This document shows, piece after piece, positions 47,275 to 48,329 of a stretch of DNA of 64,000 bases. The stretch's first letter is position 1. Each line of letters begins with the position of its first letter. The notes beneath the pieces were generated by a model. It was not told the origin of the DNA. It saw only the letters and a list, made by a program, of their open reading frames with translations, and made no database searches. Both the position numbers and the translations under genes were made by a program. Origin of the DNA: a virus. The DNA is taken from IMG/VR virus record IMGVR_UViG_3300029286_000013, one strand, 5' to 3'.

Positions 47275-48105
47275 ATGACTATCCAAAACAACCCATTAAA
47301 GCAATATTTCCGTAGACCTTCAATTTATTTGAAACTACCTAGCGGTGGTAAGTTGTATCCACCAGGTGTAGTAACTATTCCAGAGTCTGGTGAATTACCT
47401 GTATATCCCATGACAGCAATTGACGAGATTAGTGCAAAAACACCGGATGCGTTGTATAACGGTACTGCTATGGCTGATATTATTAAAAGTTGTATACCGG
47501 ATATTAAAGATCCTTGGGCTATTAATAGTATTGACTTAGATGCTGTGTTGATTGCTATTCGTTCAGCGGCAGGTGGAAACGATATGTCTATTTCATCTGA
47601 ATGCCCAAGTTGTAAAGAAATAGCTGACTACGCTGTAAATCTAGTAGGTATACTAAGTCAGCTTAAAGCAGCCGATTATGAAAAAGAATTAACTATAAAT
47701 GACTTATCTATTAAGTTTAGACCATTGACTTACAAAGAAATGAATGAAGCTGGAACTACTCAACTTGAAGCACAACGTATTTTTCTAACATTAGAAAAAG
47801 AAGAAAATGAGGCAATACGTGCAAGTAGAACTCAAGAGGCACTAAAATTTATTACTGATGTAACTATGAGAATACTATCACAGACTATTACTCATATAAG
47901 AACTCCTAGCGCATATGTAGAAGAACGTGAATATATTTTAGATTTTTTAAAGAATTGTGATAGAGATACATATGTTTCTATCAGAGACTATAATGCTGAA
48001 TTAAAGGCACAGACTGAAATTAAACCATTAAAAATTAAATGTATACATTGCCAAAATGAATATAGTCAACAATTTACACTGAACACATCTGATTTTTTCG
48101 GATAA
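47275..48105 (+). CDS. Baseplate hub assembly protein, gp26-like
   Basis: YLKLPSGG...PMTAIDEI, DLDAVLIAIR.A..G, CPSC, FRPLTY, CIHC, ends DFFG. Confidence 0.8.
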   Translation: MTIQNNPLKQYFRRPSIYLKLPSGGKLYPPGVVTIPESGELPVYPMTAIDEISAKTPDALYNGTAMADIIKSCIPDIKDPWAINSIDLDAVLIAIRSAAGGNDMSISSECPSCKEIADYAVNLVGILSQLKAADYEKELTINDLSIKFRPLTYKEMNEAGTTQLEAQRIFLTLEKEENEAIRASRTQEALKFITDVTMRILSQTITHIRTPSAYVEEREYILDFLKNCDRDTYVSIRDYNAELKAQTEIKPLKIKCIHCQNEYSQQFTLNTSDFFG

Positions 48106-48329
48106 AGCTTCTACACCTTGACCACGAGGGTGTAAAGAAGCTGATAGATGATATGGAACTTGAGTGTGCCGCTATTAAGAAAAATGCTCTTAGTATGAGT
48201 TGGTACATGAGAGGTGGTGTAACATATGAAGATATATTAAACATGTCCTCTGATGAAAGAGATGAAATTAAGAAAATTATTGATAGTAATCTGGAAGTCA
48301 CTAAGAAATCACAGATGCCATTCTTCTAA
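48093..48329 (+). CDS. gp51-like small ORF in the -1 frame, probable frameshift extension of the gp26-like gene
   Basis: Open from 48093 (FFRIKLLHLDHEGVKKLIDDMELECAAIKKNALSMSWYMRGGVTYEDILNMSSDERDEIKKIIDSNLEVTKKSQMPFF*); internal ATG at 48153 has no SD. Confidence 0.7.
   Translation, partial: FFRIKLLHLDHEGVKKLIDDMELECAAIKKNALSMSWYMRGGVTYEDILNMSSDERDEIKKIIDSNLEVTKKSQMPFF

Follow-up and report, generated by a model that had tools for sequence, protein, structure and literature searches.

A probable programmed -1 frameshift in the single gp26/gp51-type baseplate-hub gene of T4-related jumbo phages

We consider it highly probable that one gp26/gp51-type gene of a jumbo phage yields both a short and a long tail assembly chaperone by -1 slippage of ribosomes on the heptamer TTTTTTC, and that these two products would be the counterparts of T4 gp26 and gp51. 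The gene lies in the window, a stretch of 64,000 nucleotides of viral DNA (IMG/VR record IMGVR_UViG_3300029286_000013). A programmed -1 frameshift at this place had been proposed in an initial annotation made from the letters of the window, and the proposal is now supported by a near-invariant heptamer, a conserved -1 open reading frame, covariation within a downstream hairpin and natural in-frame fusions of the two frames. The signal, its conservation, its colinearity with the fused proteins and the complementary gene counts can all be read directly from the loci compared below.

The 0-frame ORF comprises 276 codons. Its product, a short form resembling TAC-N, matched the Pfam family PF12322 (T4_baseplate) over residues 51-275 with 51.4 bits, exceeding the gathering threshold of 24.5 bits set by Pfam for this family, and it also matched PHROG 150 ('baseplate hub'). 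The -1 extension alone matched only a PHROG of unknown function. By its sequencing runs, the DNA belongs to metagenomes of lake water. Contigs carrying relatives of the window gene reach 352 and 524 kb, which points to a jumbo T4-related phage as the source of the DNA. These relatives came from protein-level searches alone, and no match resulted when the locus itself was searched as DNA against the phage collection. An Rfam search of the locus returned sub-threshold chance matches only. Coordinates of the features are collected in Table 1.

Table 1. Features of the hub-gene locus in the window, and the paralogue pair of a fused lineage (last row, coordinates of contig L171)
Feature	Position	Strand	Basis or further cases
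gp26-like baseplate-hub assembly gene, 0 frame	47275..48105	+	ORF list; Pfam PF12322; PHROG 150
Slippery heptamer T_TTT_TTC, in phase with the 0 frame	48093..48099	+	sequence; 155 homologous loci
6-nt spacer GGATAA, including the 0-frame stop TAA (48103-48105)	48100..48105	+	sequence
Putative stimulatory hairpin, stem of 7 bp + 7 bp, 2-nt bulge, 7-nt loop	48106..48142	+	fold, covariation
-1 frame extension, 76 codons + TAA, C-terminal domain of the predicted long product	48099..48329	+	translation, tblastn, HMMER, profile match
Divergent tape-measure-like virion protein, 909 aa, VanY-like peptidase domain	44475..47204	-	PHROG 28, endolysin/VanY matches
Paralogue pair on L171	343-1395 and 1447-2265	same strand	further cases: L172, L173, L174

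The slip site, the -1 frame and the hairpin

According to the initial annotation, the gene ends in an in-phase slippery heptamer, the -1 frame is closed immediately upstream and opens at the heptamer, and only one early ATG, lacking an SD sequence, is present in that frame. Each of these statements was borne out. The 0 frame reads TCT GAT TTT TTC GGA TAA; a TGA at 48090-48092 closes the -1 frame, which is then open from the heptamer to the TAA at 48327-48329 and reads CGG ATA AAG ... (RIKLLHLDHEG...PFF) for 76 codons. The product sizes were likewise as claimed, that is 276 aa for the short form and 275+76 = 351 aa for the predicted long form, and the lone early ATG of the -1 frame is codon 19, at 48153.

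Conservation of the heptamer and continuity of the -1 frame, both named as checks in the initial annotation, were followed through 155 homologous loci with complete products (two IMG/VR scans contributed 160 loci), which span from 96% down to 27% protein identity. The heptamer TTTTTTC was found in phase in 154 of them and TTTTTTT in the remaining one, a conservation far beyond chance. The -1 frame is kept in all 155 loci at a length of 69-79 codons, with exactly 76 codons in 142. Cultured phages possessing the site are Atu_ph07, Phosso, PHA46, PA5oct, RaK2, Xoo-sp13, Serratia BF and Hallingskeid. In a tblastn search against cultured phages, homology of the extension began at residue 1 and lay without exception in the -1 frame in Atu_ph07, Phosso and the PHA46 group, and direct reading of the PA5oct, RaK2, Xoo-sp13, Serratia BF and Hallingskeid loci gave the same picture. 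Two of these phages carry variants of the site: in Xoo-sp13 (L087:1474-1480) T_TTT_TTT is followed by Tyr instead of Arg and by an extension of 79 aa, and in PA5oct (L085:2331-2337) TTTTTTC is followed by A, giving Gln. A joining of the two frames by a +1 shift at UUU_UUU_CGG was seen in none of the 160 loci.

The way in which the region varies depends on the frame. The first -1 codon is CGN, encoding Arg, in 153 of the 155 loci, while the same straddling codon is variable when read in the 0 frame (GGA, GCA, GAA or GTA, for Gly, Ala, Glu and Val). From this first extension codon onward, third-position variability tracks the -1 frame, and residues 1-18 of the extension are conserved as protein. 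The 0-frame stop lies one codon past the heptamer in 96 of the loci; in the other 59 the distance is 3-11 codons. The codon preceding the heptamer ends in T in every one of the 155 loci, whichever amino acid it encodes (D, S, N, A, H, R or T), and of 44 Phe-Phe pairs elsewhere in these genes only 14 are spelled TTT-TTC. Judged from these patterns, the constraint at the site acts on the nucleotides and not on the Phe-Phe pair alone.

The strong hairpin that had been claimed to begin 6 nt past the heptamer is also present. For a 68-nt stretch the folding energy is -19 kcal/mol (z = -3.8), a stability equalled by none of 200 dinucleotide shuffles. Covariation, suggested as a further check by the initial annotation, was assessed in the 41 relatives that could be aligned without gaps: 6 of the 14 pairs change on both sides, and none of 500 shuffles reached the observed score. 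The stem of the window is paired in 87% of pair cells, compared with 39-52% when the partner columns are slid. More generally, z values below -2 were obtained for the 50 nt past the site in 43 of 114 unique slip-site loci, as against 3 of 110 upstream control windows, and no such structure was detected at the corresponding place in five fused loci. More distant phages (e.g. Atu_ph07, Phosso and PA5oct) have different hairpins at the same place; in RaK2-like enterobacterial phages the hairpin is only weak.

Conservation of the hairpin at 6 nt downstream fits a slip of the ribosome, and this arrangement has to be weighed against transcriptional slippage, in which RNA polymerase would add one U within the U6 run and a minority of mRNAs would encode the fusion. 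The necessary homopolymer is indeed there, and an extra U would give the identical protein. However, a conserved structure at this distance is the ribosomal arrangement, the T run never extends beyond 6-7 in the 155 loci, and six T are short for productive transcriptional slippage in bacteria. Moreover, a relative is represented by an RNA-library contig that reads through the site with no indel, but rare variants would not show in a contig. Taken together, slippage of the polymerase appears very improbable as the source of the long form.

The RNA-library contig in question is a 215-nt lake metatranscriptome contig (run X20), about 92% identical to the window, which spans 48034-48248. It runs through the end of the hub gene, the heptamer and the hairpin, and its 0-frame stop is TGA instead of TAA. 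It is weak evidence that a relative transcribes both frames on one RNA, and DNA carry-over is possible.

Natural fusions, gene counts and the T4 gp26/gp51 pair

When the 76-aa extension was used as the query of an exhaustive HMMER search, 165 relatives were obtained. About 18 of these are cluster representatives of 319-351 aa in which the extension forms the C-terminal domain, and in all of these fused proteins the PF12322 match reaches as far as the junction. The conceptual -1 products can be aligned to them through the junction without gaps (..DxSxFF/RxRLL..PEEI.. versus ..DFxxxF/RxKLI..EEEI.., the slash marking the junction). As natural in-frame fusions exist, the transframe protein can be regarded as a natural, viable product.

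The fusions also help to decide whether the extension could instead be a separate small gene, started from the ATG at 48153 (58 aa) or, in relatives, by reinitiation at an ATGA (75 aa), with the heptamer merely encoding Phe-Phe. Gene callers and GenBank records annotate the extension in this way, and among 112 unique sequences some 75 have an ATG at codon 19 and 24 have one at codon 2; T4 gp26, too, ends in ..FFELL, so that Phe-Phe might be a protein-level motif. On the other hand, 25 of the 112 sequences have no ATG within the first 30 codons, codon 2 of the window is ATA, and the ATG at 48153 sits just beyond the hairpin without a clear SD sequence. Furthermore, the conserved residues 1-18 start with Arg, the constraint on the heptamer extends to the wobble base of the variable preceding codon, and T4, which lacks the -1 ORF, writes FF as TTC TTT. 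Finally, the natural fusions join the two parts at exactly the same point. An independent small gene is, in our opinion, hardly credible as the explanation of the conserved site. In the 24 relatives with ATG as the second extension codon, this ATG overlaps a 0-frame TGA, and a free 75-aa protein could in addition be made there by coupled reinitiation. The last reading, namely that the frame break is a homopolymer assembly error or a pseudogenised fusion, has a negligible probability: homopolymers are error-prone and one extra T would restore the fused gene, but the identical break is seen in eight finished phage genomes and, over many samples, in 155 loci, the T run is spanned without an indel by independent DNA assemblies of two further studies, and the -1 frame has remained open and constrained at the protein level, with the 155 loci and the independent assemblies excluding an assembly error.

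The copy number of the slip type was taken from complete relatives: two slip-type contigs (352 kb and 524 kb, rated 100% complete), Atu_ph07 and RaK2 contain one PF12322 gene each. T4 contains two. All five IMG/VR contigs of the fused lineages contain a long gene (325-350 aa, with the extension) and, adjacent to it and co-oriented, a short PF12322 paralogue (272-318 aa, without the extension), and the short paralogues end 0-10 residues past the junction position. The pair of the fused lineages is the T4 26/51 solution in tandem form. These complementary gene counts indicate a need for both forms, which the slip would supply from one gene.

In one lineage (G003), the two copies share about 40% identity with the window gene as well as with one another, which suggests a recent duplication of a slip-type gene. 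In FastTree trees, the only kind of tree built, two-gene lineages fall in at least two places among the slip-type genes (in the first tree the label 'fused' of row L088, a motif-search artefact, was discounted). This suggests repeated switching between the encodings, the number of switches not being established by FastTree alone. Extending this, we tentatively put forward, as a reading somewhat short of an even chance, that the short/long pair has switched repeatedly within T4-related phages among three encodings, i.e. one -1-slip gene, tandem long and short paralogues (with at least two origins in jumbo phages) and the divergent 26/51 genes of T4, and that throughout the RaK2/PA5oct/Atu_ph07 jumbo group the slip may be both ancient and the prevailing condition.

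As for the relation to T4, gp26 and gp51 are hub assembly chaperones (Leiman et al. 2010, PMC3004832, Table 2), and they score 215.6 bits and 177.5 bits (residues 1-201), respectively, against PF12322. T4 gp26 (208 aa) ends in ..KEFFELL, three residues past the FF that matches the slip position, and T4 gp51 (249 aa) has a tail of 49 aa beyond the slip-equivalent position, compared with the 76-aa extension of the window gene. Whereas the window phage has a slip-type gene, T4 has two divergent genes and encodes FF by the non-slippery TTC TTT. The end of T4 gene 26 (L084:3803-3830, minus strand) reads ..GAG TTC TTT GAG TTA CTA TAA. Its stop is overlapped by the ATG of gene 25 (TAATG), which lies in the -1 frame of gene 26; the product of gene 25 is gp25 (PF04965), an unrelated protein.

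Similarity to the T4 proteins is remote. BLASTP of the window protein or of the extension against T4 gp26 or gp51 gave nothing significant, a profile compared with single sequences matched T4 gp26/gp51 weakly, and the match to the gp51 tail was obtained by profile-profile comparison only. In that comparison (hhalign), the fused jumbo proteins aligned end to end, including the tail, with 36 gp51 relatives at an E-value of 1.4e-4, and the aligned tail blocks pair FRxKLI..EEEI with IFKLLLNPDEV and ISYxEAMxLTxxER with YxLxSIMxMIPxER. The tails alone scored 28.2, against 11.2 +/- 2.4 (maximum 19.4) for 100 column shuffles, which places them about 7 sd above the shuffles (P 5e-5). These alignments argue moderately, not decisively, for a gp51-type C-terminal tail on the long form. 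The initial annotation had equated the locus with the gp26/gp51 pair. This is supported by the match of both T4 proteins to PF12322, the end of gp26 close to the slip position, the tail of gp51 and the complementary gene counts; the extension itself would correspond to the tail of a gp51-like long form and not to the whole of gp51.

Neighbouring genes, database annotation and the comparison with lambda

The adjacent divergent gene, described initially as tape-measure-like, encodes a 909-aa product with a weak match to PHROG 28 ('tail length tape measure', E 4.6e-7). A VanY/endolysin-like domain occupies residues 699-846, and judging by these matches the protein may be a cell-wall-degrading tape measure. 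A T4-type portal gene lies beyond it. The same divergent neighbour is present also in RaK2, PA5oct, Serratia BF, Hallingskeid, PHA46 and Phosso; that of RaK2 is annotated as similar to a tape-measure protein, and that of PA5oct was detected by MS. On the other side of the locus, the stop of the extension is followed by an ORF-poor gap of about 500 nt (48330-48837) with listed ORFs of 40-59 aa only. DNA contigs from other lake samples pile up from about 48300 onward to a summed depth of 100-370, and this stretch is therefore widely conserved.

In the GenBank records of Atu_ph07, PA5oct, RaK2, Phosso, PHA46, Xoo-sp13, Serratia BF and Hallingskeid, the slip is marked in none. The record of Atu_ph07 annotates only a 40-aa piece starting from an internal ATG (L001:2609-2731), those of Phosso, PHA46, Xoo-sp13, Serratia BF and Hallingskeid list the extension as a separate small hypothetical protein, and those of PA5oct and RaK2 have nothing annotated downstream of the hub gene (L085, L086). 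More than 300 database clusters consist of stand-alone calls of the extension, of 58, 70-75 or 93 aa depending on the start chosen by the gene caller. Two entries (P0284 and P0290) are named 'imidazolonepropionase-like amidohydrolase' by JGI, which looks like a mis-annotation.

The arrangement invites comparison with phage lambda. A conserved -1 frameshift of tail assembly chaperones, producing gpG and gpGT in lambda, was reportedly described by Xu, Hendrix and Duda (2004, Mol Cell 16:11). [quoted passage not shown] They differ in that the lambda chaperone gene is directly upstream of, and co-oriented with, the tape-measure gene, whereas in the window the two genes are adjacent but divergent. 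The window protein is also twice the size of the lambda protein and has an invariant Cys4 motif, the four cysteines being located in the N-domain. The likeness to lambda G/GT would concern the expression logic and a putative shared chaperone role rather than proven homology.

Comparisons of sequence and fold gave no similarity to G-type chaperones. A Pfam search found no TAC family at E <= 0.01, and a profile search of PDB sequences gave no match. An AlphaFold2 model of a natural fusion (pLDDT 89.9, pTM 0.85) predicts the extension to be a helical hairpin with an invariant W-x-M-R-G at the turn. With this model, Foldseek found nothing in the PDB at E <= 0.001, and VIA-align (wide) returned only helical hairpins with Z <= 7. 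A search of BFVD returned only other baseplate-hub proteins, from many myoviruses, with no aligned ranges given.

Proposed mechanism and its significance

The following model is proposed for the gene at 47275-48105, which we take to be the single gp26/gp51-type baseplate-hub (tail) assembly chaperone gene of a jumbo phage. Most ribosomes would stop at the TAA at 48103 and release the short form of 276 aa. At the slip, tRNA-Phe would occupy both UUU in the P site and UUC in the A site of U_UUU_UUC, the hairpin 6 nt downstream would make the ribosome pause, and a fraction of ribosomes would move back by one base. These ribosomes would then read CGG (Arg) and 75 more codons, giving a 351-aa long form whose C-terminal domain would be helical. 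The short form would correspond to T4 gp26 and the long form to gp51, and, by analogy with lambda G/GT, both might act together, off the virion, in assembling the hub/tape-measure complex. The slip as such and its efficiency are inferred, as is the chaperone role, which is carried over to the window gene from the T4 literature.

The concept of short and long chaperones is already in print for T4-like phages and is not new. [quoted passage not shown] As presented in papers citing that work, some T4-like phages have, instead of frameshifting, a short gene and a longer fused gene composed of the short part and a downstream part (PMC10274946), and poly-T slippery sequences serve as -1 signals in TAC-N genes of T4-like phages (PMC12846349). 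The arrangement in the window is the T4-like TAC arrangement that these citing papers ascribe to Vladimirov et al. 2022. Our literature search found no paper reporting this slip, and the paper on Atu_ph07 does not mention a frameshift. What is added here is the breadth of the evidence, together with the missing annotation in cultured jumbo phages. If the RaK2/PA5oct/Atu_ph07 group or the switches between encodings were left out by Vladimirov et al. 2022, these would represent a modest new point.

For the phages themselves, the result corrects the annotation of a core tail-assembly gene across a large group of jumbo phages, in whose genomes the 3' domain has been either called a separate 'hypothetical protein' or missed. 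The group includes therapy-relevant phages of Klebsiella, Pseudomonas, Salmonella and Erwinia. Should the tentative reading of repeated switching be true, these phages would offer a cultured system for asking why both forms are needed. The need for both forms that the gene counts indicate bears on how the hub/tape-measure complex is built in contractile tails.
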